A DNA stretch of 14,095 bases from a virus (IMGVR_UViG_2695420718_000010), one strand, 5' to 3'. Shown: positions 1-14,095, numbered from the stretch's first letter. Notes: generated by a model not told the origin, from the sequence alone. Program-made: numbers and translations.

Positions 1-1884
1 GACCCGACGTCGGGACTGATGGCGATGGCGCGCCAGTTCCGTAACGTGACGGCAGAGCAGATTGCGTATGTTGCACAGCTGCAGCGTTCCGGAGACGAGG
101 CCGGGGCATTGCAGGCGGCGAACGATATCGCCACGAAAGGCTTTGATGAGCAGACCCGTCGCCTGAAAGAAAACATGGGAACACTGGAGACCTGGGCGGA
201 TAAAACAGGGAAGGCATTCAAATCGATGTGGGATGCCATTCTGGATATCGGTCGTCCTGAATCCTCAGCGGATATGCTCGCCAGTGCGCAGAAGGCATTT
301 GATGAGGCGGATAAAAAATGGCAGTGGTACCAGAGCCGGAGCCAGCGCCGGGGAAAAACCGCCTCTTTCCGGGCCAACCTTCAGGGCGCATGGAATGACC
401 GGGAAAATGCCCGTCTGGGGCTGGCAGCGGCCACGCTGCAGTCAGATATGGAAAAAGCCGGTGAACTGGCTACCAGGGACCGGGCCGAACGGGACGCATC
501 ACGGCTGAAGTATACCGGAGAGGCGCAGAAGGCGTATGAGCGTCTGCTGACGCCGCTGGAGAAATATACTAACCGGCAGGAAGAGCTGAATAAGGCCCTG
601 AAAGACGGGAAAATCCTGCAGGCGGATTACAACACGCTGATGGCGGCGGCGAAAAAGGATTATGAATCGACGCTGAAAAAGCCGAAGTCGTCAGGAGTCA
701 AAGTGTCAGCCGGTGAGCGTCAGGAAGACCAGGCGCATGCTGCCCTGCTGGCGCTTGAAACCGAGCTCCGGACGCTGGAGAAGCACAGCGGAGCGAATGA
801 GAAAATCAGCCAGCAGCGCCGGGATTTGTGGAAGGCGGAGAGTCAGTTCGCGGTACTGGAGGAGGCGGCGCAACGTCGCCAGCTGTCTGCACAGGAGAAA
901 TCCCTGCTGGCCCATGAGCAAGAGACGCTGGAGTACAAACGCCAGCTGGCTGACCTGGGTGACAAGGTTGAATACCAGAAACGGCTGAATGAGCTGGCAA
1001 ATCAGGCTGTGCGGTTTGAACAGCAGCAGAGTGCGAAGCAGGCTGCAATCAGCGCAAAAGCCCGGGGGCTGACGGACCGTCAGGCACAGCGGGAGTCGGA
1101 ATCGCAGCGCCTTCGTGACGTGTACGGTGATAATCCGGATGCGCTGGCGAAGGCCACATCTGCACTGAAGAACACCTGGTCTGCGGAGGACCAGCTTCGT
1201 GGCAGCTGGATGGCCGGGCTGAAGTCCGGCTGGGGCGAGTGGGCGGAAAGTGTGACGGACAGTTTTTCGCAGGTTAAAAGCGTGGCCACGCAGACCTTTG
1301 ACGGTATTGCACAGAATATGGCAGCGATGCTGACCGGCAGCGAACAGAGCTGGCGTGGTTTCACCCGTTCTGTGCTCTCCATGCTGACAGAGATTTTTCT
1401 GAAGCAGGCCATGGTGGGGATTGTCGGGAGTATTGGCAGCGCCATGGGTGGTGCTTTCGGTGGTGGGGCGTCTGCCTCCACGGGGACGGCCATTCAGGCT
1501 GCGGCGGCGAACTTCCATTTCGCGACCGGAGGATTTACGGGGACGGGCGGCAAATATGAGCCTGCGGGGATTGTTCATCGCGGGGAGTTTGTTTTCACGA
1601 AGGAGGCAACCAGCCGGATTGGCGTCGGCAACCTGTACCGCCTGATGCGGGGCTATGCGGAAGGTGGTTATGTGGGCGGTGCCGGAAGTCCGGCGCAGAT
1701 GCGGCGGACGGAAGGCATTAATTTTAATCAGAACAATCACGTGGTGATTCAGAACGACGGCACCAACGGACAGGCGGGGCCGCAGCTGATGAAGGCGGTG
1801 TATGACATGGCCCGCAAGGGGGCGCAGGATGAGATTCAGGCGCAGATGCGTGATGGCGGCGTATTTTCCGGAGGCAGGCGATGA
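1..1884 (+). CDS. H: Tail tape measure protein (lambda gpH-like), C-terminal part; the frame is open from base 1, so the true start lies upstream of the window
   Basis: The 621-aa frame ends ...GGKYEPAGIVHRGEFVFTKEATSRIGVGNLYRLMRGYAEGGYVGG...HVVIQNDGTNGQAGPQLMKAVYDMARKGAQDEIQAQMRDGGVFSGG, which matches the lambda gpH C-terminus as I recall it. The upstream part is Q/A/E/R/K-rich, as expected for a coiled-coil tape measure. Its stop overlaps the M start as ATGA at 1881-1884. Confidence 0.9.
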   Translation, partial: DPTSGLMAMARQFRNVTAEQIAYVAQLQRSGDEAGALQAANDIATKGFDEQTRRLKENMGTLETWADKTGKAFKSMWDAILDIGRPESSADMLASAQKAFDEADKKWQWYQSRSQRRGKTASFRANLQGAWNDRENARLGLAAATLQSDMEKAGELATRDRAERDASRLKYTGEAQKAYERLLTPLEKYTNRQEELNKALKDGKILQADYNTLMAAAKKDYESTLKKPKSSGVKVSAGERQEDQAHAALLALETELRTLEKHSGANEKISQQRRDLWKAESQFAVLEEAAQRRQLSAQEKSLLAHEQETLEYKRQLADLGDKVEYQKRLNELANQAVRFEQQQSAKQAAISAKARGLTDRQAQRESESQRLRDVYGDNPDALAKATSALKNTWSAEDQLRGSWMAGLKSGWGEWAESVTDSFSQVKSVATQTFDGIAQNMAAMLTGSEQSWRGFTRSVLSMLTEIFLKQAMVGIVGSIGSAMGGAFGGGASASTGTAIQAAAANFHFATGGFTGTGGKYEPAGIVHRGEFVFTKEATSRIGVGNLYRLMRGYAEGGYVGGAGSPAQMRRTEGINFNQNNHVVIQNDGTNGQAGPQLMKAVYDMARKGAQDEIQAQMRDGGVFSGGRR

Positions 1885-2210
1885 AAACATTTCGCTGGAA
1901 AGTGAAGCCGGATATGGAGGTGAACTCGCAGCCATCGGTGCGTGAAGTGCGTTTTGGTGACGGGTATTCGCAGCGTATGGCGGCGGGGCTGAATGCTGAC
2001 CTGAAAACATACCGTGTGACGCTTTCCGTGACCCGGGAGGAGGCCCGACATCTGGAGGCATTCCTGGCAGAGCACGGTGGCTGGAAGGCGTTTCTGTGGA
2101 CACCTCCTTATGCATACCGGCAGATAAAGGTGACCAGTGCCGCCTGGTCATCACGGGTTCGCATGCTGCGGGTTGAATTCAGTGCCGAGTTTAAGCAGGT
2201 GGTGAACTGA
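1881..2210 (+). CDS. M: Minor tail protein M (copy 1)
   Basis: 109 aa, MKTFRWKVKP...VRFGDGYSQR...HGGWKAFLWTPPY...RMLRVEFSAEFKQVVN, closely matching lambda gpM. The start overlaps the H stop (ATGA) and the stop overlaps the L start (TGATG at 2208-2212). Confidence 0.92.
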   Translation: MKTFRWKVKPDMEVNSQPSVREVRFGDGYSQRMAAGLNADLKTYRVTLSVTREEARHLEAFLAEHGGWKAFLWTPPYAYRQIKVTSAAWSSRVRMLRVEFSAEFKQVVN

Positions 2211-2908
2211 TGCAGGATATTCACGAAGAAAGTCTGAACGAGTCGGTTAAATCAGAGCAGTCACCGCGGGTGGTACTCTGGGAAATCGACCTGACGGTAC
2301 AGGGTGGTGAGCGGTATTTTTTCTGCAATGAGCTGAATGAAAAAGGGGAGGCGGTCACCTGGCAGGGGCGGCAATATCAGGCATACCCGATTGACGGCAG
2401 TGGCTTTGAGATGAACGGGAAGGGCAGCAGTGCCCGCCCGTCGCTGACGGTGTCGAATCTGTTCGGTCTGGTCACCGGAATGGCGGAGGACCTGCAGAGC
2501 CTGGTGGGGGCCACGGTGGTCCGCCGCCGGGTGTATGCCCGTTTTCTGGATGCGGTGAATTTTGTGGCGGGCAATCCGGAAGCGGACCCGGAGCAGGAGC
2601 TGAGCGACCGCTGGGTGGTGGAGCAGATGTCAGAGCTGACGGCCATGACAGCCTTGTTTGTGCTGGCAACACCGACGGAGACGGACGGAGCGCTGTTTCC
2701 TGGTCGCATCATGCTGGCGAACACCTGTATGTGGGATTACCGGGGAGATGAATGCGGGTATAACGGTCCTGCGGTGGCGGATGAGTTCGACACCCCCACC
2801 ACGGATATCCGTAAGGACAGATGCAGCAAGTGCATGCGCGGGTGTGAGATGCGCGGCATGGTGGCTAATTTTGGCGGTTTCCTTTCCATTAATAAACTTT
2901 CGCAGTAA
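2210..2908 (+). CDS. L: Minor tail protein L (copy 1); C-terminal cysteine cluster consistent with the Fe-S motif reported for lambda gpL
   Basis: 232 aa, MQDIHEESLNESVKSEQSPRVVLWEIDL... with the C-terminal motif CMWDYRGDECGY...DRCSKCMRGCEM. Translationally coupled to M. Confidence 0.92.
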   Translation: MQDIHEESLNESVKSEQSPRVVLWEIDLTVQGGERYFFCNELNEKGEAVTWQGRQYQAYPIDGSGFEMNGKGSSARPSLTVSNLFGLVTGMAEDLQSLVGATVVRRRVYARFLDAVNFVAGNPEADPEQELSDRWVVEQMSELTAMTALFVLATPTETDGALFPGRIMLANTCMWDYRGDECGYNGPAVADEFDTPTTDIRKDRCSKCMRGCEMRGMVANFGGFLSINKLSQ

Positions 2909-2913
2909 ATCCA

Positions 2914-3657
2914 ATGACACAGACAGAATCAGCGATTCTGGCGCATGCCCGGCGGTGTGTGCCTGCGGAGTCGTGCGGCTTCGTGGTGAGAACGCCGGAG
3001 GGGGAGCGGTATATCCCTTGTGTGAATATCTCTGCAGAGCCGGAGGCGTATTTTCGTATTGCACCGGAAGACTGGCTGCGGGCAGAGATGCAGGGGGAGA
3101 TTGTGGCGCTGGTCCACAGCCACCCCGGTGGTCTGCCCTGGCTGAGCGAGGCCGACCGGCGGCTGCAGATAAAAAGTGCACTGTCCTGGTGGCTGGTCTG
3201 CCGGGGGGAAATTCATAAATTCCGCTGTGTGCCACATCTGACAGGACGGCGCTTTGAGCACGGGGTGACGGACTGTTACACGCTGTTCCGGGATGCATAC
3301 CATCTGGCGGGAATTGATATGCCGGATTTTGAGCGTGAGGATGACTGGTGGCGTAACGGTCAGAACCTTTACCTGGACAATATGGCGGTCACCGGCTTTT
3401 ACCGGGTGCCCCTGTCCTCTGCACAGGCGGGCGATATCCTGCTGTGCTGCTTTGGCGCATCGGTGGCCAATCATGCCGCCATTTACTGCGGCAACGGTGA
3501 GCTGCTTCACCATCTGCCTGAACAACTGAGTAAACGGGAGAGGTATTCCGAAAAATGGCAACGACGAACGCATTCAGCCTGGCGTCACCGCCACTGGCAC
3601 GTATCTGCCTTCACGGGGATTTACAACGATTTGGCCGCCGCCTCAGCCTGTATGTGA
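2914..3657 (+). CDS. K: Tail assembly protein K (copy 1), with JAMM/MPN-like and NlpC/P60-like motifs
   Basis: 247 aa, MTQTESAILAHARRC.... A JAMM-type H-x-H-x7-S-x2-D motif is visible (HSHPGGLPWLSEAD, about nt 3115-3156), plus a candidate NlpC/P60 catalytic Cys (GVTDCYTLF) and His (NHAAIY). The exact start and the roughly 100-nt overlap with the I start were not resolved. Confidence 0.88.
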   Translation: MTQTESAILAHARRCVPAESCGFVVRTPEGERYIPCVNISAEPEAYFRIAPEDWLRAEMQGEIVALVHSHPGGLPWLSEADRRLQIKSALSWWLVCRGEIHKFRCVPHLTGRRFEHGVTDCYTLFRDAYHLAGIDMPDFEREDDWWRNGQNLYLDNMAVTGFYRVPLSSAQAGDILLCCFGASVANHAAIYCGNGELLHHLPEQLSKRERYSEKWQRRTHSAWRHRHWHVSAFTGIYNDLAAASACM

Positions 3658-4559
3658 ACACGGCAGCGGAAGCCATTCGTGCCCTGTCGATGCAGATGCC
3701 GGGATTCCGCCGTCAGATGAACGAAGGCTGGTACCAGATACGTATTCGCGGTGAGGACACGGCACCGGAGGCGGTGTACGCCCGTCTTCACGAACAGCTG
3801 GGTGAGGGAACGGTCATCCACATTGTGCCGCGACTGGCCGGGGCCGGAAAGGGTGGACTGCAGATTGTATTTTATGCCGAATCGGATGCGCAGCGTGCGG
3901 ACTGGCAGAAAGGCTTGCAGGAGGGGCTCAGTAACTGGGTGGACAATGCATCCGATTACGCCTCACAGGCAGCACAGCTTGCGACGGAGGGTATCTCAGG
4001 GATGGTGAATAACATCACGGAGATGCTGAACGGAAACAAAGTGGAATGGCGCAACTGGGCCTCATCCGTACTGCAGGAAATCTCAAAAGTCCTTATGAAT
4101 GCCGCGATTGTCAACGGGATCAAGACGGCGGCAAACGGTATGTCCGGTGCGGGAGGATTTCTTGGCAGCATTGGTGACTGGCTGGGCGGTGCGGTGGTCA
4201 ATGCAAAAGGCGGCGTGTATACCTCGGCAAACCTGAGCGCGTACAGCAACAGCATTGTGGACACGCCCACGTACTTTGCCTTTGCAAAAGGGGCCGGGCT
4301 GATGGGGGAAGCCGGACCTGAAGCCATTATGCCCCTGACCCGGGCGGCGGATGGCTCGCTGGGCGTACGCGCCGTGGGTAGTATGAACGGTAGTGCGGGT
4401 CTGGTGTATTCCCCGGTCTACCACATCGCCATTCAGAATGACGGGACTAATGGCCAGATAGGGCCGGAGGCGGCAGGCAGTCTTGTGCAGCTGATTGACC
4501 AGCGGGTGCAGGCGGTGATGCTGTCCATGCGACGTGACGGAGGAATGCTGAGTGGCTGA
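3555..4559 (+). CDS. Chimeric ORF: the N-terminal 104 aa of tail assembly protein I fused in frame to the C-terminal ~230 aa of a second, divergent tape measure protein (H')
   Basis: Nt 3555-3868 look identical to nt 7663-7976, the 5' end of the intact I gene; the two diverge at 3869 versus 7977. The downstream part (…WRNWASSVLQEISKVLMNAAIVNG…GSIGDWLGG…FAFAKGAGLMGEAGPEAIMPL…HIAIQNDGTNGQIGPEAAGSL…RRDGGMLSG) parallels the H C-terminus in this window (…WRGFTRSVLSMLTEIFLKQAMVG…GSIGSAMGG…HVVIQNDGTNGQAGPQL…MRDGGVFSGG). Its stop overlaps the M2 GTG start (GTGGCTGA), as at a native H/M junction. Confidence 0.75.
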   Translation: MATTNAFSLASPPLARICLHGDLQRFGRRLSLYVNTAAEAIRALSMQMPGFRRQMNEGWYQIRIRGEDTAPEAVYARLHEQLGEGTVIHIVPRLAGAGKGGLQIVFYAESDAQRADWQKGLQEGLSNWVDNASDYASQAAQLATEGISGMVNNITEMLNGNKVEWRNWASSVLQEISKVLMNAAIVNGIKTAANGMSGAGGFLGSIGDWLGGAVVNAKGGVYTSANLSAYSNSIVDTPTYFAFAKGAGLMGEAGPEAIMPLTRAADGSLGVRAVGSMNGSAGLVYSPVYHIAIQNDGTNGQIGPEAAGSLVQLIDQRVQAVMLSMRRDGGMLSG

Positions 4560-4893
4560 GATAAAAACGCTGCATCTGGTCCCGCGTGAAGGGATGCAGG
4601 TGAGTGAGAAGCCGTCGGTGGTGAGGGTGCGGTTTGGTGACGGTTATGAACAGCGTCGCCCCACAGGACTGAATCCTCAACTGAAGACGTTTCAGGCGGT
4701 GTTCCGGGTGACGGATGAGTCAACCCGGCGCTGGCTGGAAGAGTTTTTATCGTGGCATGGTGGTTACCGTGCCTTTTTGTGGCGACCGCCGAAACATAAC
4801 CGGACGGTGAGGGTTGTGTGCCGTGAGTGGAGTGTCACGGATAATGCCCGGTACAGTGATTTCAGTTGCACGATAGAGCAGGTGGTGAACTGA
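4552..4893 (+). CDS. M: Minor tail protein M (copy 2, divergent paralogue; GTG start)
   Basis: 113 aa, (M)AEIKTLHLVPREGMQVSEKPSVVRVRFGDGYEQR...HGGYRAFLWRPP...IEQVVN. It shares the VRFGDGY and HGG(W/Y)(K/R)AFLW(T/R)PP motifs with M1 but is clearly diverged. The stop overlaps the L2 ATG (TGATG at 4891-4895). Confidence 0.85.
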   Translation: MAEIKTLHLVPREGMQVSEKPSVVRVRFGDGYEQRRPTGLNPQLKTFQAVFRVTDESTRRWLEEFLSWHGGYRAFLWRPPKHNRTVRVVCREWSVTDNARYSDFSCTIEQVVN

Positions 4894-6336
4894 TGCAGGA
4901 TATTCACGAAGAAAGCCTGAACGAGTCGGTTAAGTCAGAGCAGTCACCGCGGGTGGTACTCTGGGAAATCGACCTGACGGTACAGGGCGGTGAGCGGTAT
5001 TTTTTCTGTAATGAGCTGAATGAAAAAGGGGAGCCGGTCACCTGGCAGGGGCGGCAATATCAGGCATACCCGATTGACGGCAGCGGTTTTGAGATGAGCG
5101 GGAAGGGCAGCAGTGCCCGCCCGTCGCTGACGGTGTCCAATCTGTTTGGTCTGGTCACCGGAATGGCGGAGGATTTGCAGAGCCTGGTGGGGGCCACGGT
5201 GGTCCGCCGCCGGGTGTATGCCCGTTTTCTGGATGCGGTGAATTTTGTGGCGGGCAATCCGGAAGCGGACCCGGAGCAGGAGCTGAGCGACCGCTGGGTG
5301 GTGGAGCAGATGTCAGAGCTGACGGCCATGACAGCCTTGTTTGTGCTGGCAACACCGACGGAGACGGACGGAGCGCTGTTTCCTGGTCGCATCATGCTGG
5401 CGAACACCTGTATGTGGGATTACCGGGGAGATGAATGCGGGTATAACGGTCCTGCGGTGGCGGATGAGTTCGACACCCCCACCACGGATATCCGTAAGGA
5501 CAGATGCAGCAAGTGCATGCGCGGGTGTGAGATGCGCGGCATGGTGGCTAATTTTGGCGGTTTCCTTTCCATTAATAAACTTTCGCAGTAAATCCAATGA
5601 CACAGACAGAATCAGCGATTCTGGCGCATGCCCGGCGGTGTGTGCCTGCGGAGTCGTGCGGCTTCGTGGTGAGAACGCCGGAGGGGGAGCGGTATATCCC
5701 TTGTGTGAATATCTCTGCAGAGCCGGAGGCGTATTTTCGTATTGCACCGGAAGACTGGCTGCGGGCAGAGATGCAGGGGGAGATTGTGGCACTGGTCCAC
5801 AGTCATCCCGGTGGTCTGCCCTGGCTGAGCGAGGCCGACCGGCGGCTGCAGATAAAAAGTGCACTGTCCTGGTGGCTGGTCTGCCGGGGGGAAATTCATA
5901 AATTCCGCTGTGTGCCACATCTGACAGGACGGCGCTTTGAGCACGGGGTGACGGACTGTTACACGCTGTTCCGGGATGCCTACCATCTGGCGGGAATTGA
6001 TATGCCGGATTTTGAGCGTGAGGATGACTGGTGGCGCAACGGTCAGAACCTTTACCTGGACAATATGGCGGTCACCGGCTTTTACCGGGTGCCCCTGTCC
6101 TCTGCACAGGCGGGCGATATCCTGCTGTGCTGCTTTGGTGCTTCGGTACCGAACCATGCCGCCATTTACTGCGGCAACGGTGAACTGCTTCACCATCTGC
6201 CTGAACAACTGAGTAAACGGGAGAGGTATTCCGAAAAATGGCAACGACGAACGCATTCTGTCTGGCGTCACCGCCACTGGCACGCATCTGCCTTCACGGG
6301 GATTTGCAACGATTTGGCCGCCGCCTCAGCCTGTAA
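4878..6336. repeat. Direct repeat copy B of the L-K unit
   Basis: Homology to copy A begins at about 4878 (GCAGGTGGTGAACTGATGCAGG, the M/L junction) and ends at the K2 terminus, where the sequence switches to the interior of L. Confidence 0.85.
4893..5591 (+). CDS. L: Minor tail protein L (copy 2)
   Basis: The protein from MQDIHEES... is near-identical to L1, with a few substitutions (for example EAVTW to EPVTW, EMNGKG to EMSGKG). The six-frame ORF begins upstream at 4866, but the homologous, translationally coupled ATG is at 4893. Confidence 0.9.
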   Translation: MQDIHEESLNESVKSEQSPRVVLWEIDLTVQGGERYFFCNELNEKGEPVTWQGRQYQAYPIDGSGFEMSGKGSSARPSLTVSNLFGLVTGMAEDLQSLVGATVVRRRVYARFLDAVNFVAGNPEADPEQELSDRWVVEQMSELTAMTALFVLATPTETDGALFPGRIMLANTCMWDYRGDECGYNGPAVADEFDTPTTDIRKDRCSKCMRGCEMRGMVANFGGFLSINKLSQ

Positions 6337-6340
6337 CTGA
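5597..6340 (+). CDS. K: Tail assembly protein K (copy 2)
   Basis: 247 aa, near-identical to K1 and K3 but with scattered differences (SVPNHAAIY, HSVWRHRHWHASAFTGICND, C-terminal ...ASACN). The JAMM HSHPGG...SEAD motif is retained. Its stop at 6338-6340 sits at the junction into L3. Confidence 0.88.
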   Translation: MTQTESAILAHARRCVPAESCGFVVRTPEGERYIPCVNISAEPEAYFRIAPEDWLRAEMQGEIVALVHSHPGGLPWLSEADRRLQIKSALSWWLVCRGEIHKFRCVPHLTGRRFEHGVTDCYTLFRDAYHLAGIDMPDFEREDDWWRNGQNLYLDNMAVTGFYRVPLSSAQAGDILLCCFGASVPNHAAIYCGNGELLHHLPEQLSKRERYSEKWQRRTHSVWRHRHWHASAFTGICNDLAAASACN

Positions 6341-7011
6341 ACGAGTCGGTTAAGTCAGAGCAGTCACCGCGGGTGGTACTCTGGGAAATCGACCTGACGG
6401 TACAGGGTGGTGAGCGGTATTTTTTCTGTAATGAGCTGAATGAAAAAGGGGAGCCGGTCACCTGGCAGGGGCGGCAATATCAGGCATACCCGATTGACGG
6501 CAGCGGTTTTGAGATGAGCGGGAAGGGCAGCAGTGCCCGCCCGTCGCTGACGGTGTCCAATCTGTTTGGTCTGGTCACCGGAATGGCGGAGGATTTGCAG
6601 AGCCTGGTGGGGGCCACGGTGGTCCGCCGCCGGGTGTATGCCCGTTTTCTGGATGCGGTGAATTTTGTGGCGGGCAATCCGGAAGCGGACCCGGAGCAGG
6701 AGCTGAGCGACCGCTGGGTGGTGGAGCAGTTATCAGAGCTGACGGCCATGACGGCCTCGTTTGTGCTGGCCACACCGACCGAGACGGACGGGGCGCTGTT
6801 TCCCGGTCGCATCATGCTGGCGAACACCTGTATGTGGACCTACCGCTCTGATGAGTGTGGTTACACGGGCGGGGCTGTGGCGGATGAGTTCGATAAACCC
6901 ACCACGGATATCCGTAAGGACAGATGCAGCAAGTGCATGCGCGGGTGTGAACTGCGCAGGAATGTCGGCAATTTTGGCGGTTTCCTTTCCATTAACAAAC
7001 TTTCGCAGTAA
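6337..7011 (+). pseudogene. L: Minor tail protein L (copy 3), 5'-truncated: lacks the first ~8 codons and the native ATG/RBS; 3' third diverged
   Basis: The frame opens right after the TAA at 6334-6336 and reads LNESVKSEQSPRVVLWEIDL..., which is L residues 9 onward. The only in-frame start candidate is the GTG at 6373. The 5' two-thirds match L2; the C-terminal region differs (CMWTYRSDECGYTGGAVADEFDKPTT...CELRRNVGNF) but keeps the cysteines. Confidence 0.7.
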
Positions 7012-7021
7012 ATCCCGGTTT

Positions 7022-7765
7022 ATGACACAGACTGAATCAGCGATTCTGGCGCATGCCCGGCGGTGTGTGCCTGCGGAGTCGTGCGGCTTCGTGGTGAGAA
7101 CGCCGGAGGGGGAGCGGTATATCCCTTGTGTGAATATCTCTGCAGAGCCGGAGGCGTATTTTCGTATTGCACCGGAAGACTGGCTGCGGGCAGAGATGCA
7201 GGGGGAGATTGTGGCGCTGGTCCACAGCCACCCCGGTGGTCTGCCCTGGCTGAGCGAGGCCGACCGGCGGCTGCAGATAAAAAGTGCACTGTCCTGGTGG
7301 CTGGTCTGCCGGGGGGAAATTCATAAATTCCGCTGTGTGCCACATCTGACAGGACGGCGCTTTGAGCACGGGGTGACGGACTGTTACACGCTGTTCCGGG
7401 ATGCATACCATCTGGCGGGAATTGATATGCCGGATTTTGAGCGTGAGGATGACTGGTGGCGTAACGGTCAGAACCTTTACCTGGACAATATGGCGGTCAC
7501 CGGCTTTTACCGGGTGCCCCTGTCCTCTGCACAGGCGGGCGATATCCTGCTGTGCTGCTTTGGCGCATCGGTGGCCAATCATGCCGCCATTTACTGCGGC
7601 AACGGTGAGCTGCTTCACCATCTGCCTGAACAACTGAGTAAACGGGAGAGGTATTCCGAAAAATGGCAACGACGAACGCATTCAGCCTGGCGTCACCGCC
7701 ACTGGCACGTATCTGCCTTCACGGGGATTTACAACGATTTGGCCGCCGCCTCAGCCTGTATGTGA
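7022..7765 (+). CDS. K: Tail assembly protein K (copy 3)
   Basis: ATG at 7022; the 247-aa protein is identical to K1. The nucleotide sequence from 7034 onward appears identical to 2926 onward. Confidence 0.9.
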   Translation: MTQTESAILAHARRCVPAESCGFVVRTPEGERYIPCVNISAEPEAYFRIAPEDWLRAEMQGEIVALVHSHPGGLPWLSEADRRLQIKSALSWWLVCRGEIHKFRCVPHLTGRRFEHGVTDCYTLFRDAYHLAGIDMPDFEREDDWWRNGQNLYLDNMAVTGFYRVPLSSAQAGDILLCCFGASVANHAAIYCGNGELLHHLPEQLSKRERYSEKWQRRTHSAWRHRHWHVSAFTGIYNDLAAASACM

Positions 7766-8343
7766 ACACGGCAGCGGAAGCCATTCGTGCCCTGTCGATG
7801 CAGATGCCGGGATTCCGCCGTCAGATGAACGAAGGCTGGTACCAGATACGTATTCGCGGTGAGGACACGGCACCGGAGGCGGTGTACGCCCGTCTTCACG
7901 AACAGCTGGGTGAGGGAACGGTCATCCACATTGTGCCGCGACTGGCCGGGGCCGGAAAGGGTGGACTGCAGATTGTGCTGGGGGCGGCAGCCATCGTGGG
8001 CTCTTTCTTCACTGCCGGGGCATCAATGGCGTTATGGGGTTCAGCCCTGGCAGCCGGTGGTTTTTCTGCCACCACGATGCTGTTTTCACTTGGAGCCAGC
8101 ATGATTCTGGGCGGTGTGGCCCAGATGCTGGCCCCGAAGGCAAAAACACCGGATTACCGCGCAACGGATAACGGCAGACAGAACACGTACTTTTCCTCGC
8201 TGGATAACATGATTGCCCAGGGGAACCCGATGCCGGTGCCTTACGGTGAAATGCTGGTTGGCTCCCGGCGAATCTCCCAGGACATCAGTACCCGTGATGA
8301 AGGCGGTGACGGGAAGGTGGTGGTTATCGGGCGGCAGGCATAA
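7663..8343 (+). CDS. I: Tail assembly protein I (intact)
   Basis: 226 aa, MATTNAFSLASPPLARICLHGDLQRFGRR...IHIVPRLAGAGKGGLQIVLGAAAIVGSFFTAGAS...MLAPKAKTP...NTYFSSLDNMIAQGN...GEMLVGSRRISQDISTRDEGGDGKVVVIGRQA, closely matching lambda gpI as I recall it (N-terminal domain plus hydrophobic Gly/Ala-rich C-terminal half). Confidence 0.92.
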   Translation: MATTNAFSLASPPLARICLHGDLQRFGRRLSLYVNTAAEAIRALSMQMPGFRRQMNEGWYQIRIRGEDTAPEAVYARLHEQLGEGTVIHIVPRLAGAGKGGLQIVLGAAAIVGSFFTAGASMALWGSALAAGGFSATTMLFSLGASMILGGVAQMLAPKAKTPDYRATDNGRQNTYFSSLDNMIAQGNPMPVPYGEMLVGSRRISQDISTRDEGGDGKVVVIGRQA

Positions 8344-8354
8344 AACATAAAAAA

Positions 8355-8386
8355 TCCCGCAGTGCTCACGGACAGGAACTGCGGGA
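8355..8386 (-). terminator. Candidate intrinsic terminator for leftward (sodC) transcription
   Basis: A 9-bp inverted repeat, TCCCGCAGT (8355-8363) and ACTGCGGGA (8378-8386), with a 14-nt loop. On the minus strand it is followed by a T-rich run (complement of AAAACATAAAAAA, 8342-8354). The loop is long, so stability is uncertain. Confidence 0.4.
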
Positions 8387-8503
8387 GAGTTACGAAGATT
8401 GAGTGTAAGGAATTATTCTTATGTCACGACAAAAACATTAACTCAGAGAGGGAGGATGTGCCGTTCTTTTCAGGGAGAAAGGATTTATCGTCCTGAGGAA
8501 TAA

Positions 8504-8527
8504 AGGTAAGGGGCCCGCCCCTTACCT
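8504..8527. terminator. GC-rich hairpin immediately downstream of the sodC stop; candidate terminator
   Basis: AGGTAAGGGG (8504-8513), loop CCCG, CCCCTTACCT (8518-8527). On the minus strand it is followed by TTTATTCC. It lies 7 nt from the sodC stop codon. Confidence 0.45.
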
Positions 8528-8533
8528 GACTGA

Positions 8534-9061
8534 TTATTGAATGATGCCGCAGGCCATTCTCGCACCACCACCGCCCAGGGGCTCCGGATGGTCATGATGG
8601 TTATCACCGCCAGCATGAAGCATGAGAGAACGCCCTTTAATCTCTTTTAATGAGTTCAGTCTCGGGGCCAGGACCGGGTAGTTCGCTTTTCCGTCATGCG
8701 TCACGAACAGCGCAGGGAGGTCGCCCAGGTGTCCATCCGGAGACCAGGGGCCAAGATGTTTGCCGGTGTTTTTCGGGTCAAAGTGACCGCCAGCCGATAA
8801 TGCTGCGACCGGTTTTCCGTCTTTCAGTGCCGGGGCGCAATTTCCTTTTTCGTGCACATGAAAACCATGAATGCCTTCAGACAGAGAGTGAAGGGCTGGT
8901 GTGAACAGCAGACCGTAGGGGGTCTCCTGAATGGTTATTTTTCCAATGCTGACTTCTTTTCCGTCAGCACTGACAAGGTTCATTGGGACTTCCTGTTCTG
9001 CTGCGTATCCGCATGATGCTGCTGTCAGCATGGCAATGGCAGCAATGATTTTACATTTCAT
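8534..9061 (-). CDS. sodC: Periplasmic Cu/Zn superoxide dismutase (prophage-borne SodC)
   Basis: 175 aa from the ATG at 9061-9059 (the supplied 344-aa ORF is over-extended at its N-terminus). It has a signal-peptide-like N-terminus ([20 protein letters not shown]) and Cu/Zn-SOD signatures ([49 protein letters not shown]). An RBS (GAGGG) lies about 6 nt upstream on the minus strand. Confidence 0.93.
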
Positions 9062-9194
9062 AAAACCCTCATTAATTCCGTTAACAGACTGAGCTTGCTG
9101 GTTACAGGGTAACAAACAGCGTTCTGATGATATCGCGCAATAGCTGTGCAATATCCTATCACTGCGATTAATAATACCAATTGAGAGGAACATT

Positions 9195-12100
9195 ATGGGT
9201 AAAGGTGGCGGCAGGGCGCACACGCCGGTTGAGGTAAAGGACAATCTTAAGTCCACGCAGATGATGAGCGTGATTGATGCCATTGGTGAAGGGCCGATTG
9301 AAGGTCCGGTGAAGGGGCTGCAGAGTATCCTGGTGAACAAAACCCCGCTGACGGACACGGACGGTAATCCTGTGATACATGGTGTGACCGCGGTCTGGCG
9401 CGCCGGGGAGCAGGAGCAGACACCACCTGAAGGCTTTGAGTCCTCCGGGGCGGAAACCGCACTGGGCGTGGAAGTGACGAAGGCAAAGCCGGTAACGCGC
9501 ACCATTACATCCGCGAACATTGACCGCCTGCGGGTCACCTTCGGGGTGCAGTCACTGTTGGAGACCACCTCAAAGGGCGACCGTAATCCCTCTTCTGTCC
9601 GACTGCTGATTCAGTTGCAGCGTAACGGTAACTGGGTGACGGAAAAGGATGTCACCATTAACGGCAAGACCACCTCACAGTACCTGGCGTCGGTGATTCT
9701 GGAGAATCTGCCTGAGCGGCCCTTTAACATCCGGATGGTCCGGGAGACAGCGGACAGCACCCCGGACCAGCTGCAGAATAAGACGCTCTGGTCGTCATAC
9801 ACCGAAATCATCGATGTGAAACAGTGCTACCCGAACACGGCGATTGTGGGGCTGCAGGTGGATGCGGAGCAGTTTGGCGGTCAGCAGATGACGGTGAACT
9901 ACCATATCCGCGGTCGCATCATCCAGGTACCGTCAAACTATGACCCGGAAAAACGCACGTACAGCGGCATCTGGGACGGCAGCCTGAAACCGGCATACAG
10001 CAACAACCCGGCCTGGTGCCTGTGGGACATGCTGACTCACCCGCGCTATGGCATGGGAAAACGTCTGGTGGCGGCGGATGTTGACAAGTGGGCGCTGTAT
10101 GCCATCGGGCAGTACTGCGACCAGACGGTCCCGGATGGTTTCGGGGGCACAGAGCCGCGGATGACCTTTAATGCGTACCTGTCACAACAGCGTAAGGCGT
10201 GGGACGTTCTCAGTGATTTCTGCTCGGCGATGCGCTGTATGCCGGTATGGAGCGGCCAGACGCTGACGTTCGTTCAGGACCGCCCGTCGGATGTGGTGTG
10301 GCCGTACACCAACAGCGATGTGGTGGTGGATGATAACGGCGTGGGGTTCCGCTACAGCTTCAGTGCCCTGAAGGACCGGCACACGGCGGTGGAGGTGAAT
10401 TACACCGACCCGCAGAACGGCTGGCAGACCTCCACGGAACTGGTGGAAGACCCGGAAGCCATACTGCGCTACGGACGCAACCTGCTGAAGATGGACGCGT
10501 TCGGCTGTACCAGCCGCGGTCAGGCCCACCGTGCCGGACTGTGGGTGATAAAGACCGGACTGCTGGAAACGCAGACGGTGGATTTCACGCTCGGGTCTCA
10601 GGGGCTGCGGCACACACCCGGTGACATCATTGAAATCTGTGATAACGACTATGCCGGGACCCTGACCGGCGGACGTGTCCTGTCCATTGATGCCGCCAGC
10701 CGCACCCTGACACTGGACCGTGAGGTGACCCTGCCGGAGACAGGTGCCGCCACGGTGAACCTGATTAACGGCAGCGGTAAGCCGGTGAGTGTGGACATCA
10801 CCGCACACCCCGCGCCGGACCGGATACAGGTCAGCACCCTGCCTGATGGTGTGGAGACATACGGTGTGTGGGGACTCTCCCTGCCGTCACTGCGTCGTCG
10901 CCTGTTCCGCTGTGTCTCCATCCGGGAAAACACGGACGGCACCTTTGCCATCACGGCGGTGCAGCACGTACCGGAAAAAGAAGCCATCGTGGATAACGGG
11001 GCCAGCTTTGAGCCGCAGTCAGGCACCCTGAACAGCGTTATTCCACCGGCAGTGCAGCACCTGACGGTGGAGGTGAGCGCGGCTGACGGTCAGTATCTGG
11101 CACAGGCGAAATGGGACACGCCGCGGGTGGTGAAGGGTGTGCGCTTCAGTCTGCGCCTGACCAGTGGAAGCGGTGAAAACAGCCGCCTGGTGACCACCGC
11201 CATCACCGCAGACACGGCGCACCGTTTCAGTGGCCTGCCGCTCGGGGAATACACCCTGACAGTCAGGGCAATTAACAGTTATGGCCAGCAGGGCGAACCG
11301 GCCACCACCACCTTCCGGATTAACGCGCCAGCAAAACCCGCCACCATTGAACTGACGCCGGGGTATTTTCAGATAACGGCGGTCCCGCGTCTTGCGGTGT
11401 ATGACCCGACGGTACAGTTTGAGTTCTGGTTTTCGGAGACAAAAATCGCAGACATATCTCAGGTGGAAACCTCTGCCCGTTATCTGGGGACCGGCAGTCA
11501 GTGGAGTGTATCCGGCCCGCACATTAAGCCCGGGAAGGATTTCTGGTTTTACGTGCGCAGCGTCAACCTGGTGGGGAAATCTGCGTTTGTGGAAGCCAGT
11601 GGCCGGGCCAGCAATGATGCAGAAGGGTATCTGGGGCTGTTTCGGGAAAAAATAGGAAAACTGCATCTGGCTCAGGGGCTGTGGGAGCTGATAGACAACA
11701 GCCAGCTTGCGGATGAGATGGCGGAGATGAAGACCACCATCACCGAAACCCGCAATGAAATCACACAGACGGTCAGTAAAACGCTGGAAGACCAGAGCGC
11801 CACCATACAGCAGATACAGCGCGTGCAGAAGGACACAAATGATGACCTTGCTGCACTTTACATGCTGAAGGTACAGAAAACAAAAAATGGCATACCCTAT
11901 GTTGCCGGTATTGGAGCGGGGATTGAGGATACTGATGGCCAGCCCCTGAGCAACATACTGCTGCTGGCTGACCGTATTGCGATGATTAACCCGGAGGACG
12001 GCAACACCACGCCGTTATTTGTGGCGCAGGGGAATCAGTTGTTCATGAACGATGTGTTCCTGAAGCGGCTGTTTGCGGTGAGTATCACCTCGTCCGGCAA

Positions 12101-12671
12101 TCCCCCGACGTTTTCCCTGACGCCGGAAGGGAAGCTGACAGCCAGGAACGCGGATATCAGCGGAGCAATTACCGCGAATACCGGCACGCTCAATAATGTC
12201 ACCATTAACGAGAACTGTGTCATCAGAGGGAAACTGTCTGCAAACCAGATTGAAGGCGACCTGGTGAAGACGGTGGGGAAAGCCTTTCCCCGGAATAACA
12301 GTTATGCCAGCGGGACGGTAACCGTCACAGTTTACGATGACCAGGGCTTCGACCGGCAGATTATCATTCCCCCGGTGCTGTTTCGCGGGACGAAACACCA
12401 GAATTTCAACAGCCCGAATCAGCAGTCGTACTGGTATTCCACCTGTAAGCTGCAGGTGCTGAAGAACGGGGTTGAGATTTTCCATGAACCGGCAACGGAT
12501 GTCAGCCGGGTGTTCTCATCGGTGATAGATATGCCGGCAGGGCGGGGTCATGTCACCCTGACGTTTAATGTGTCGTCGGCCGGTGCGAACAACTGGACGC
12601 CGACAACGTACATCAGTGATTTACTGGTTGTGGTCATGAAAAAATCCACGGCAGGGATCAGTATCAGCTGA
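9195..12671 (+). CDS. J: Host specificity / tail tip protein J (central tail fibre)
   Basis: 1158 aa, [39 protein letters not shown]...[15 protein letters not shown]...[22 protein letters not shown]...[19 protein letters not shown]...[26 protein letters not shown]...[34 protein letters not shown]...[10 protein letters not shown].... This is collinear with lambda gpJ as I recall it, with a diverged C-terminal receptor-binding region. The RBS GAGAGGAA lies 5-6 nt upstream. Confidence 0.95.
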
Positions 12672-12690
12672 CGGTTTATTAACCCGGACG

Positions 12691-12715
12691 GGCACCTCAG
12701 GAGGTGCCTTTTTTA
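12691..12715 (+). terminator. Rho-independent terminator downstream of J
   Basis: GGCACC (12691-12696), loop TCAGGA, GGTGCC (12703-12708), followed by TTTTTTA (12709-12715), 20 nt after the J stop. Confidence 0.7.
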
Positions 12716-12739
12716 TTGACTGAAAACAAAGAGGTAATC

Positions 12740-13363
12740 ATGCGGCATTTATACGCAACGATATTATTGTTTACTACCCTGCTGGCAGGAATTGCCTTTC
12801 CTGCACAGGCTGAAAGCGGACACGGTGCATTTTCCGTGGGATATGCTCAGGTTCACCCGGGCGGCGTACCGGCATTGTCCGGTACCGGTGCGCGTGCAGG
12901 TGATTTAAAAGGGATTAATGTGAAATACCGTTATGAGTTCACGGATCACCTGGGCGGCATTGTCGCGCTGAGTTATGCATCGGTGAAGAAAAGTGACACG
13001 ATGAAGACGGGTGAAAATACCTTCCATTATGAAAGCCTGCGCGGTCGTTATGTCAGTCTGATGGCCGGCCCTGTCTGGCAGCTCAGTGAGCGGGTCAGTC
13101 TCTATGGCATGGCCGGGATGGCGTACACCCGCTGGTCTGACAGTGTTCAGGATTACCGGCGTGATGAAGTGAAACCGGGGTATGTGAAGGAGACCACCAC
13201 CGCCAGTGATGGTCATACTGCGCGTCATCTGTCGCCGGCCTGGAATGCCGGGATTCAGTTCAGTCCCGTAGAGACGGTGGTTATTGACCTTGCTTATGAA
13301 GGTTCCGGCAGTGGCGACTGGCGCACTGACGGTTTCATCGTGGGTGTCGGCTATAAATTCTGA
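12740..13363 (+). CDS. lom: Lom-like outer-membrane beta-barrel protein (Ail/Lom/PagC family)
   Basis: Start taken at the ATG at 12740, with RBS GAGGT 5 nt upstream (the six-frame ORF starts at 12704). Signal peptide MRHLYATILLFTTLLAGIAFPAQA, then the mature protein, ending in the aromatic C-terminus ...GFIVGVGYKF typical of beta-barrel outer-membrane proteins. Position after J matches lambda lom. Confidence 0.9.
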   Translation: MRHLYATILLFTTLLAGIAFPAQAESGHGAFSVGYAQVHPGGVPALSGTGARAGDLKGINVKYRYEFTDHLGGIVALSYASVKKSDTMKTGENTFHYESLRGRYVSLMAGPVWQLSERVSLYGMAGMAYTRWSDSVQDYRRDEVKPGYVKETTTASDGHTARHLSPAWNAGIQFSPVETVVIDLAYEGSGSGDWRTDGFIVGVGYKF

Positions 13364-13387
13364 TTAGCCAGGTAACACAGTGTTATG

Positions 13388-13417
13388 ACAGCCCGCCGGT
13401 TCAGGCGGGCTTTTTTG
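13388..13417 (+). terminator. Rho-independent terminator downstream of lom
   Basis: GCCCGCC (13391-13397), loop GGTTCA, GGCGGGC (13404-13410), followed by TTTTTTG (13411-13417). Confidence 0.8.
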
Positions 13418-13427
13418 TGGGGTGAAT

Positions 13428-14095
13428 ATGGCAGTAAAGATTTCAGGTGTGCTGAAAGACGGCACAGGAAAACCAATACAGAACTGCACCATTCAACTGA
13501 AAGCCAGACGTAACAGCACCACGGTGGTGGTGAACACGGTGGCCTCTGAAAATCCGGATGAGGCAGGGCGTTACAGCATGGACGTCGAGTATGGTCAGTA
13601 CAGCGTCACTCTGTTGGTGGAGGGATTCCCTCCATCACATGCCGGGACCATCACCGTGTATGAAGATTCTCAACCGGGGACGCTGAATGATTTTCTCGGT
13701 GCCATGTCGGAGGATGACGTCCGGCCGGAGGCAATGCGTCGTTTTGAACTGATGGTGGAAGAAGCGGCGCGTCACGCAGAGGAGGCGAAGAAGAATGCCG
13801 GAGAGGCGGAGACATCAGCGAGGAATGCCGGCATATCAGCCAGTCAGGCAGAAGAGAGCGCTGCAAATGCTGACACTTCAGCAGGGGATGCATCGGAGTC
13901 AGCCCGGCAGGCGGCAGAAAGTGCAGCCGCTGCAAAGCAGTCAGAGGAGGCGTCCTCGTCCTCGGCCTCTGCGGCCGCTCAAAAAGCCAGTGAGTCATCA
14001 CAAAGTGCAGCAGATGCTGAATTGTCAAGAAAGACGGCAGAAAGTGCAGCCGGTAATGCAGCCAGGGATGCAACGACCGCAACAGAAAAAGCCCG
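13428..14095 (+). CDS. stf: Side tail fibre protein (lambda Stf-like), N-terminal part; continues beyond the window
   Basis: ATG at 13428; MAVKISGVLKDGTGKPIQNCTIQLKARRNSTTVVVNTVASENPDEAGRYSMDVEYGQYSVTLLVEGFPPSHAGTITVYEDSQPGTLNDFLGAMSEDDVRPEAMRRFELMVEEAARHAEEAKKNAGEAETSARNAGISASQ.... This matches the lambda Stf N-terminus as I recall it, followed by an A/E/S-rich repetitive region. No stop codon in the window. Confidence 0.88.
   Translation, partial: MAVKISGVLKDGTGKPIQNCTIQLKARRNSTTVVVNTVASENPDEAGRYSMDVEYGQYSVTLLVEGFPPSHAGTITVYEDSQPGTLNDFLGAMSEDDVRPEAMRRFELMVEEAARHAEEAKKNAGEAETSARNAGISASQAEESAANADTSAGDASESARQAAESAAAAKQSEEASSSSASAAAQKASESSQSAADAELSRKTAESAAGNAARDATTATEKA

Follow-up and report, generated by a model that had tools for sequence, protein, structure and literature searches.

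The window, that is, the whole stretch of DNA analyzed here, is the entire 14,095-bp contig CYGP01000052.1 of the draft Escherichia coli assembly GCA_001286645.1. The contig begins and ends within prophage genes that occur in multiple copies, and a literature search for either accession (GCA_001286645, CYGP01) returned no paper. The contig reads H-M1-L1-K1-I(5')::H'(3')-M2-L2-K2::L3(from codon 9)-K3-I-sodC(minus strand)-J and consists of three segments, X (1-3868), Y (3870-6335) and Z (6337-14095), with only one base, an A each time, between neighboring segments. Its features are as follows.

1-1884, plus strand: H, tape measure gene, 3' part, cut by the contig start (Pfam Tape_meas_lam_C)
1881-2210, plus strand: M1, minor tail protein (PF05939, Phage_min_tail)
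2210-2908, plus strand: L1, intact (PF05100, Phage_tail_L)
2914-3657, plus strand: K1, intact (PF14464 and PF00877, Prok-JAB and NLPC_P60)
3654-3868, plus strand: I 5' fragment, codons 1-72, at the right edge of segment X; identical to 7762-7976
3869, no strand: junction 1, single A between X and Y (from allele comparison)
3870-4559, plus strand: H' 3' fragment, last 229 codons of another tape measure gene, at the left edge of Y (Tape_meas_lam_C; matches prophage B)
4552-4893, plus strand: M2 (PF05939)
4893-5591, plus strand: L2, intact (PF05100)
5597-6340, plus strand: K2, native to 6335, with its last codon and stop from 6336 and L sequence (PF14464 and PF00877)
6336, no strand: junction 2, single orphan A between Y and Z (from allele comparison)
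6337-7011, plus strand: L3, lacking codons 1-8, at the left edge of Z (PF05100 on 6373-7011)
7022-7765, plus strand: K3, intact, identical to K1 from 7034 on (Pfam Prok-JAB and NLPC_P60; exact repeat)
7762-8343, plus strand: I, intact (PF06805, Lambda_tail_I)
8534-9061, minus strand: sodC, Cu/Zn superoxide dismutase cargo gene (PF00080, Sod_Cu; sodC is annotated at the same spot in relatives)
9195-12671, plus strand: J, tail tip/host specificity protein (J-domain Pfam families)
12740-13363, plus strand: lom, Ail/Lom outer membrane protein (PF06316)
13428-14095, plus strand: tail fiber gene, 5' part, cut by the contig end (PF08400)

An earlier note on this DNA had recognized three L genes, three K genes and a truncated H', and self-BLAST and Pfam agree that this anatomy is real. 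Pfam matches every gene of a lambda-type tail tip module, including K2, L3, M2 and the fusion. The gene order given in that note, ending in K3-I-sodC-J, also stands, with sodC (8534-9061) now assigned to the minus strand. Lambda-type prophages carrying sodC and lom (e.g., at 0.96 Mb of strain Z1323HEC0108, or of the EHEC CP-933/Sp type) share with the window all genes, their expected order and their overlaps, and its flanks are 98-99.9% identical to theirs. It differs from them by 4,108 extra bases containing an extra M, two extra copies each of L and K, and the I 5' and H' 3' fragments. Instead of single copies, the window holds L and K three times, M twice and I one and a half times, plus the H' fragment; each of these two genes is single-copy at all 82 natural loci that carry K or L. 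Deleting 3869-7976, which is exactly this surplus, restores the canonical 9,987-bp module at the length seen in the best complete genomes. A nonfunctional tail module, raised as a possibility in that note, does not follow: with a real structure, at least one intact copy each of H, M, L, K, I and J would still be there.

Self-BLAST aligned 2234-3868 with 6337-7976 at 96.8% identity, 2194-3659 with 4877-6342 at 98.0% and 4917-6342 with 6337-7767 at 95.7%, with direct-repeat spacings of 2683 and 1420/1425 bp. H' shares 27% protein identity with H and is unrelated to it at the DNA level, which bears out its description as a divergent tape measure gene. Copies that are 2 to 4% apart do not fit recent duplication of one prophage, and with H' being a different tape measure gene and the best donors being two different prophages, we reject a simple tandem duplication. 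From the start of Z, 6337-6729 equals L2 bar one base and 6730-7033 represents a third allele; a G private to L2 (5098) recurs in L3 (6518). The contig traverses exact repeats of 943, 615 and 321 bp twice each, lengths that we judge to exceed the resolving power of ordinary short-insert read pairs. The longest of them (2926-3868 = 7034-7976) ends precisely at junction 1.

All three segments are collinear with ordinary prophages. In Z1323HEC0108, the closest complete genome, X matches prophage A at 0.96 Mb with 99.87% identity, and Z matches the same prophage with 98.1% identity. Y is 98.4% identical to prophage B at 4.586 Mb, 3.6 Mb from the X/Z match, where the counterpart of the H' fragment is a 1080-aa TMP gene. 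The Z1323HEC0108 genome contains six matching places.

Junction 1 had been described as joining the middle of I to the 3' part of H' at 3868/3869. This position is correct, and we add that the fusion is in frame and that one A lies at 3869, after I (to 3868) and before H' (from 3870). The 301-aa product (3654-4559) consists of residues 1-72 of the annotated 193-aa I and the last 229 residues of H'; the longest ORF over the junction starts at 3555 and encodes 334 aa. The join separates a complete I N-terminal domain (fusion residues 2-64) from a complete Tape_meas_lam_C domain (residues 83-154), which counts against an artifact. At the site of 3869, the I allele is G at all 82 viral loci and A in a single complete genome, and H' has C or T at the matching site. 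The A is a rare natural I allele, another point against an artifact, and given this allele, the sequence at junction 1 could be read as a blunt real join. There is no microhomology at this junction.

At junction 2, K2 extends to 6335, an A occupies 6336 and L resumes at 6337 with codon 9. The join between the K2 3' end and L codon 9, formerly placed at about 6336-6342 with CTG as shared letters, is thus retained, with TGAAC instead as the shared letters. This motif follows the join in both parents, starting 1-2 nt downstream, and the unmatched A stands at the join itself. The resemblance of TGAAC to short-homology illegitimate recombination counts against an artifact. The K2 stop codon keeps its native position, and the last codon alone is altered (ASACN*). 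In viral loci, the 6336 site is T (72) or C (10) in K and T (47), C (19) or G (1) in L, never A, and none of the K or L copies in about 1,750-1,800 matching complete E. coli genomes has A there. Only two other bases in the whole 14-kb window are private. Upstream of 6336, Y agrees with K1 and K3 over its last 29 nt (6307-6335) and departs from them at the 30th.

As previously claimed, neither junction lies in homologous sequence: I is joined to H', and the K end to L codon 9, at nonhomologous positions, on which grounds we rejected homologous exchange between prophages. A mobile element or site-specific recombination was likewise discarded, since no Chi site was found, no inverted repeat spans junction 1 or 2 (the sole 10-nt pair, 3880-3889/3948-3957, lies wholly within H') and the extra DNA contains no transposase or integrase.

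Neither junction is spanned in any of the 5,426 complete E. coli genomes, in which matches end at the join. Exact searches with 31-34-mers over the junctions found none in GTDB representatives, IMG/VR or JGI metagenomes, and the junctions were not found in phages. The 301-aa fusion protein is recorded for contig CYGP01000052.1 only, no protein among the best 120 of 398 homologues runs from I into H', and exact-protein look-up returned no record for the 334-aa ORF or K2. Two guessed junction-edge proteins (3840-4559 and 3870-4559), of the kind that might come from an independent k=31 assembly, also had no match, which is uninformative. A cluster of partial TMPs of 209-227 aa is likely a clustering by-product and is not taken as evidence. 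The junctions are thus not reproduced in any of the assembled sequence collections searched.

Three of the four internal edges (before 3870, after 6335 and before 6337) adjoin commonly polymorphic sites of the natural alleles, and the fourth (after 3868) adjoins the rare variant site with the natural A allele. The true left end of the contig also adjoins a polymorphic site (C13/T12/A1 before base 1). In these genes, a minor allele frequency of at least 10% is seen at only 8-12% of sites; with p=0.1, the chance of at least three of four edges falling at such sites is about 0.004 (our own arithmetic). The segments thus break where repeat copies differ, as in a misjoin. This signature is not universal, since the edges of a control scaffold join, in the IMG/VR draft contig L076, are not at polymorphic sites. 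Other draft contigs end scattered over the region, L082 starting 3 nt before the H' edge and L076 8 nt before the I edge; we regard these end positions as weak evidence.

The earlier note had left two options, real illegitimate junctions or an assembly artifact. We favor the latter and consider that the triplication probably arose during scaffolding or gap closure and not by biological rearrangement, because the window is a whole draft contig from a multi-copy region, its junctions are unique, its segment edges lie at paralogue-variable sites and the A at 6336 has no natural match. The single separating bases point the same way. Three contigs, X (H-M-L-K-I5'), Y (H'3'-M-L-K) and Z (L-K-I-sodC-J...), would derive from one polylysogenic E. 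coli genome, in which two or three different lambdoid prophages contributed tail-module sequence. Scaffolding or gap closing would have set these side-by-side paralogues end to end, leaving one placeholder or filler base per join. Such a step might involve greedy base-by-base extension that halts where reads from paralogous copies disagree, after which contigs with a non-positive gap estimate would be abutted.

Known scaffolder and gap-closer misjoins, in which contigs with a non-positive gap estimate are abutted with a single n, resemble the window in several respects. Here, too, contigs from paralogous prophages would have been abutted into a false tandem duplication, with one base per join and edges where extension would meet conflicting reads. 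GapFiller extends base by base on a 29-nt overlap, halts at ambiguous overhangs and leaves repeat gaps open (PMC3446322), and this default overlap equals the 29-nt shared context at the right edge of Y. L076 provides a precedent, joining I3' and intergenic sequence to K3'-I-sodC-J via a single N at 548 and thereby falsely duplicating K3'-I. The join in L076 carries an N, whereas both joins here carry an A, unmatched at 6336 and a rare natural allele at 3869. The window contains zero N characters, and this use of real letters counts against an artifact, under which some program would have had to turn a one-base gap into A.

General properties of assembly also count against an artifact. In a plain de Bruijn contig, each k-mer, those at the junctions included, must occur in reads, and ordinary inward-facing short-insert read pairs would not connect I5' with H'3'.

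A real, complex rearrangement in a polylysogenic strain is a less likely origin, in which two illegitimate joins, perhaps arising together by multi-template switching as DNA replicated or a prophage was induced, would have spliced a 2.47-kb H'3'-M-L-K segment from a second prophage and a re-started L-K-I into the tail operon. The product would be an in-frame fusion of the gpI N-domain to the C-domain of a foreign tape measure protein, accompanied by three L and three K genes. The continuity of the contig, the position of junction 1 between domains, the retained K2 stop with TGAAC common to both parents, and the natural A allele at 3869 are consistent with such an event, as is the private base common to L2 and L3, which copies related within one genome would share. 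Illegitimate joins with the same TMP C-terminus also exist in other E. coli, namely in P0047 and P0088 (tail-chaperone::TMP) and P0087 (TMP::I), with the P0047 join present in NCBI and Logan assemblies alike. It would nevertheless require two independent nonhomologous joins 2.5 kb apart, each with a one-base A, and a real break has no reason to place three of four edges at commonly polymorphic sites. No natural K or L copy accounts for the A at 6336, neither junction offers microhomology usable on the priming side, the copies are 2-4% diverged instead of identical and no second occurrence emerged from the collections searched. Without Chi or a junction-spanning inverted repeat, the joins also bear no mobile-element or site-specific signature. 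It is thus doubtful that the contig captures a fresh product of multi-template nonhomologous recombination among lambdoid prophages sharing a host, not yet purged by selection.

Very improbably, the junctions could be real and their placement the assembler's choice, with a normal prophage and a separate 4,108-bp unit (3869-7976) that is circular or tandemly amplified elsewhere. The identity of 2926-3868 with 7034-7976 up to junction 1 allows the graph to be threaded two ways, one of which yields the canonical 9,987-bp module. Both odd junctions must still be real, so that the objections to a rearrangement are inherited, and no gene for replication or mobility lies in the 4.1-kb unit. Alternatively, DNA of two or more strains, or chimeric fragments formed in library preparation, could have entered the consensus. 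Such a chimera would agree with the unequal distances of the segments to the nearest complete genome (99.87%, 98.4% and 98.1%) and is highly implausible, since random joins would not unite, in one orientation, three pieces of a single gene module and polylysogeny in one strain accounts equally for three alleles, given the six matching places in that genome.

In Hendrix's model, phage mosaicism is built from scars of illegitimate recombination like those in cryptic prophages; such scars likewise join genes internally without extended homology. In other E. coli genomes, the same TMP C-terminus is fused to chaperone, terminase, portal or I fragments. Those scars are within-prophage deletions, some of them recurrent in independent assemblies, whereas the joins in the window add DNA from another prophage, occur once and bear assembly-edge signatures.

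If the structure is an artifact, a public E. coli record from which RefSeq proteins are derived (CUA54366.1, the I::TMP "putative tail component of prophage", among them) includes a chimeric gene and false gene copies. Misjoins that lack an N could then be flagged by one unmatched base between segments edged at paralogue-variable sites. If it is real, the locus, still one case and without evident function, would be a rare unselected example of the nonhomologous joins thought to generate phage mosaicism.

ORF listing and self-comparison revealed three repeated units in the window and, together with the Pfam gene order, bear out the three-unit L-K anatomy described in the earlier note. The genes, named after those of lambda-type tail operons and assigned by Pfam, are as follows.

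1-1884, plus strand: H, tape measure, its 5' part lost at the contig start
1881-2210, plus: M1
2210-2908, plus: L1
2914-3657, plus: K1
3654-3868, plus: 5' fragment of I, fused to the H' remnant
3870-4559, plus: H', the 3'-terminal 229 codons of a different tape measure gene
4552-4893, plus: M2
4893-5591, plus: L2
5597-6340, plus: K2
6337-7011, plus: L3, starting at codon 9
7022-7765, plus: K3
7762-8343, plus: I, second occurrence
8534-9061, minus: sodC, Cu/Zn superoxide dismutase
9195-12671, plus: J
3' of J, plus: lom, then the 5' start of a tail fibre gene

Within the window, 2194-3659 and 4877-6342 are 98.0% identical, 2234-3868 and 6337-7976 are 96.8% identical, and 4917-6342 and 6337-7767 are 95.7% identical; H' and H share 27% protein identity, and the H'3'-M2 stretch 3870-4876 occurs once within the contig. 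The L3-K3 spacer has a 5-bp insertion (7016-7020) relative to L1-K1 and the reference prophages, which explains the difference in repeat spacing (1420 versus 1425). A public gene call at 6331-7011 (226 aa) contains an in-frame TAA at 6334-6336. Neither its product nor K2 has a Pfam entry on record, and the K2 protein is absent from the exact-protein index, though listed on the contig. The sodC gene separates I from J and lies on the opposite strand, an arrangement shared with related EHEC/EPEC prophages. Loss of function of the tail module, suggested in the earlier note, is not implied, since each tail gene would have an intact copy even if the structure were real.

Exact-protein look-up of J identified the window as contig CYGP01000052.1 in its entirety (14,095 bp), part of draft assembly GCA_001286645.1; no paper naming this assembly accession was found in the literature. 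Each contig end falls within a prophage gene that is multi-copy in such genomes; where complete E. coli genomes carry the module, the number of matching places has a median of 2 and reaches 14. The closest complete genome is that of strain Z1323HEC0108. A lambda-like prophage located there at 0.96 Mb matches 1-3868 at 99.87% identity (five mismatches) and 6337-14095 at 98.1%. Another prophage, at 4.586 Mb, matches 3870-6342 at 98.4%; it has head genes of HK97 type and a tape measure protein (TMP) of 1080 aa. The window therefore reads as segment X (1-3868), an A, segment Y (3870-6335), a second A and segment Z (6337-14095). In Z1323HEC0108, the prophage corresponding to the sodC region runs on into the effector genes nleB2, nleC and nleH. 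Segment Z is itself a typical mosaic: its first 393 bases differ from L2 at a single position, a third L allele follows at 6730-7033, and the 943 bp from 7034 are identical to K1-I5', reaching exactly the equivalent of junction 1, the I::H' join at 3869.

The arrangement appears once in the collections searched. The same span measures 9,987 bp in the best complete genomes, the window being longer by exactly 4,108 bp (2683+1425). None of 5,426 complete E. coli genomes spans junction 1 or junction 2 (the K2::L3 join at 6336) in searches with 300-nt queries centred on the joins, which returned thousands of matches, every one ending at the join. The exact junction strings were not found in GTDB representative genomes, IMG/VR or JGI metagenomes. 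The fusion protein CUA54366.1 is on record for CYGP01000052.1 only, and of 398 homologues the best 120 include none that spans I to H'. Neither L nor K is duplicated in any of 82 natural loci, drawn from IMG/VR with two annotated prophages added.

The segment edges carry a signature of their own. Edge alleles were read from 80 natural I-encoding loci. At the adjoining sites, H' alleles have C or T (5' of Y's left edge), K alleles T72/C10 (3' of Y's right edge) and L alleles T47/C19/G1 (5' of Z's left edge); 3' of X's right edge, 82/82 loci have G, whereas a single complete genome, F8704-2, has A. In these genes, equal variability is found at only 8-12% of sites, and the probability of at least three of the four edges falling at variable sites by chance, taking p = 0.1, is ~0.004. 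The site directly 5' of the true contig start is C13/T12/A1; thus, a genuine contig end has the same property. Assembly graphs break exactly where repeat copies differ, and base-by-base gap fillers halt there too, whereas nothing would draw a real breakpoint to variable sites. The A at 6336, one of only three window bases unseen in natural alleles, occurs in no natural copy of either parent, and engineered K and L queries with this A gave one-mismatch matches only, in ~1,750-1,800 complete genomes. The prophage of E. coli O39:NM F8704-2 (locus L084), whose I gene shares the rare GTA allele of window position 3869, also carries an IS200C transposase gene (325-783), with the tail chaperone gene T on one side and the tape measure gene on the other.

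The description in the earlier note stands, and of its two readings the uniqueness and edge signatures favour an artefact over real illegitimate junctions. The triplication is most likely a scaffolding or gap-closure misjoin, in which three paralogous prophage contigs would have been joined end to end. Exact repeats of 943, 615 and 321 bp are each traversed twice by the contig, and in our judgement short-insert pairs cannot order them reliably. A misjoin would need a step that writes A in place of N and read pairs connecting I5' with H'3'; neither can be named, which weighs against it.

A real complex rearrangement is unlikely, though several observations speak for it. The window has no N character, the A at 3869 occurs naturally as a synonymous I allele, and junction 1 is in frame and falls between two complete domains, yielding a 301-aa product, I(1-72)::H'(229 aa). 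Junction 2 keeps the position of the K2 stop codon and alters the last codon alone, and TGAAC follows it in both parents. L2 and L3 also share a private base, G at 5098 and 6518 (A in 70/70 natural L alleles), which indicates either copies related within the genome or one segment used twice by the assembler. Other E. coli genomes also carry illegitimate fusions of the same TMP C-terminus, some of them seen in independent assemblies. Five homologues (P0047, P0049, P0077, P0087 and P0088) combine it with Pfam families of the tail chaperone, terminase, portal or I; they resemble scars of deletions within cryptic prophages, the sequences read being those of P0047, P0087 and P0088. In P0087 there are also frameshifts typical of noisy assembly. 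However, a real event would need two non-homologous joins within 2.5 kb. Each join has a one-base A filler, the edges lie at variable sites, the crossover itself shows no microhomology, the copies are diverged, and no second occurrence was found in the collections searched. Nor was a Chi site found, or an inverted repeat spanning either junction, the single 10-nt pair lying wholly within H'. That both junctions are real with a different placement is very improbable.

The proposed misjoin has a parallel among draft contigs. In L076 (IMGVR_UViG_2703719355_000016, region 1-1300), one of the 82 natural loci, I is present twice, and a single N at 548 links I3' plus an intergenic stretch (7968-8514 in window terms) to K3'-I-sodC-J (from 7637 on), a backward jump of ~880 nt in module coordinates. 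It is a false tandem duplication of paralogous prophage contigs, the kind proposed for the window, with the gap mark still present. Its edges, unlike the window's, are not at polymorphic sites, and the variable-edge signature therefore depends on the software. In another draft contig, L078, two Ns in J (4773-4774) stand for ~218 nt relative to the window, an under-sized gap. By default, GapFiller requires a 29-nt overlap, adds one base per step, halts at an ambiguous overhang and leaves gaps in repeats open (PMC3446322). The final 29 nt of Y equal K1 and K3 and the 30th differs, a context that fits GapFiller, whose use here is putative.

If the true neighbours of the segments lie elsewhere in the assembly, they would be contigs ending in H' with ...GGAAAC, starting in I with CTGGGGGCGG and ending in L with ...GAAGAAAG. 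The main value of the finding is as a warning on a chimeric gene model in the public record, with the single-base, N-free join as a recognisable signature of misjoining.
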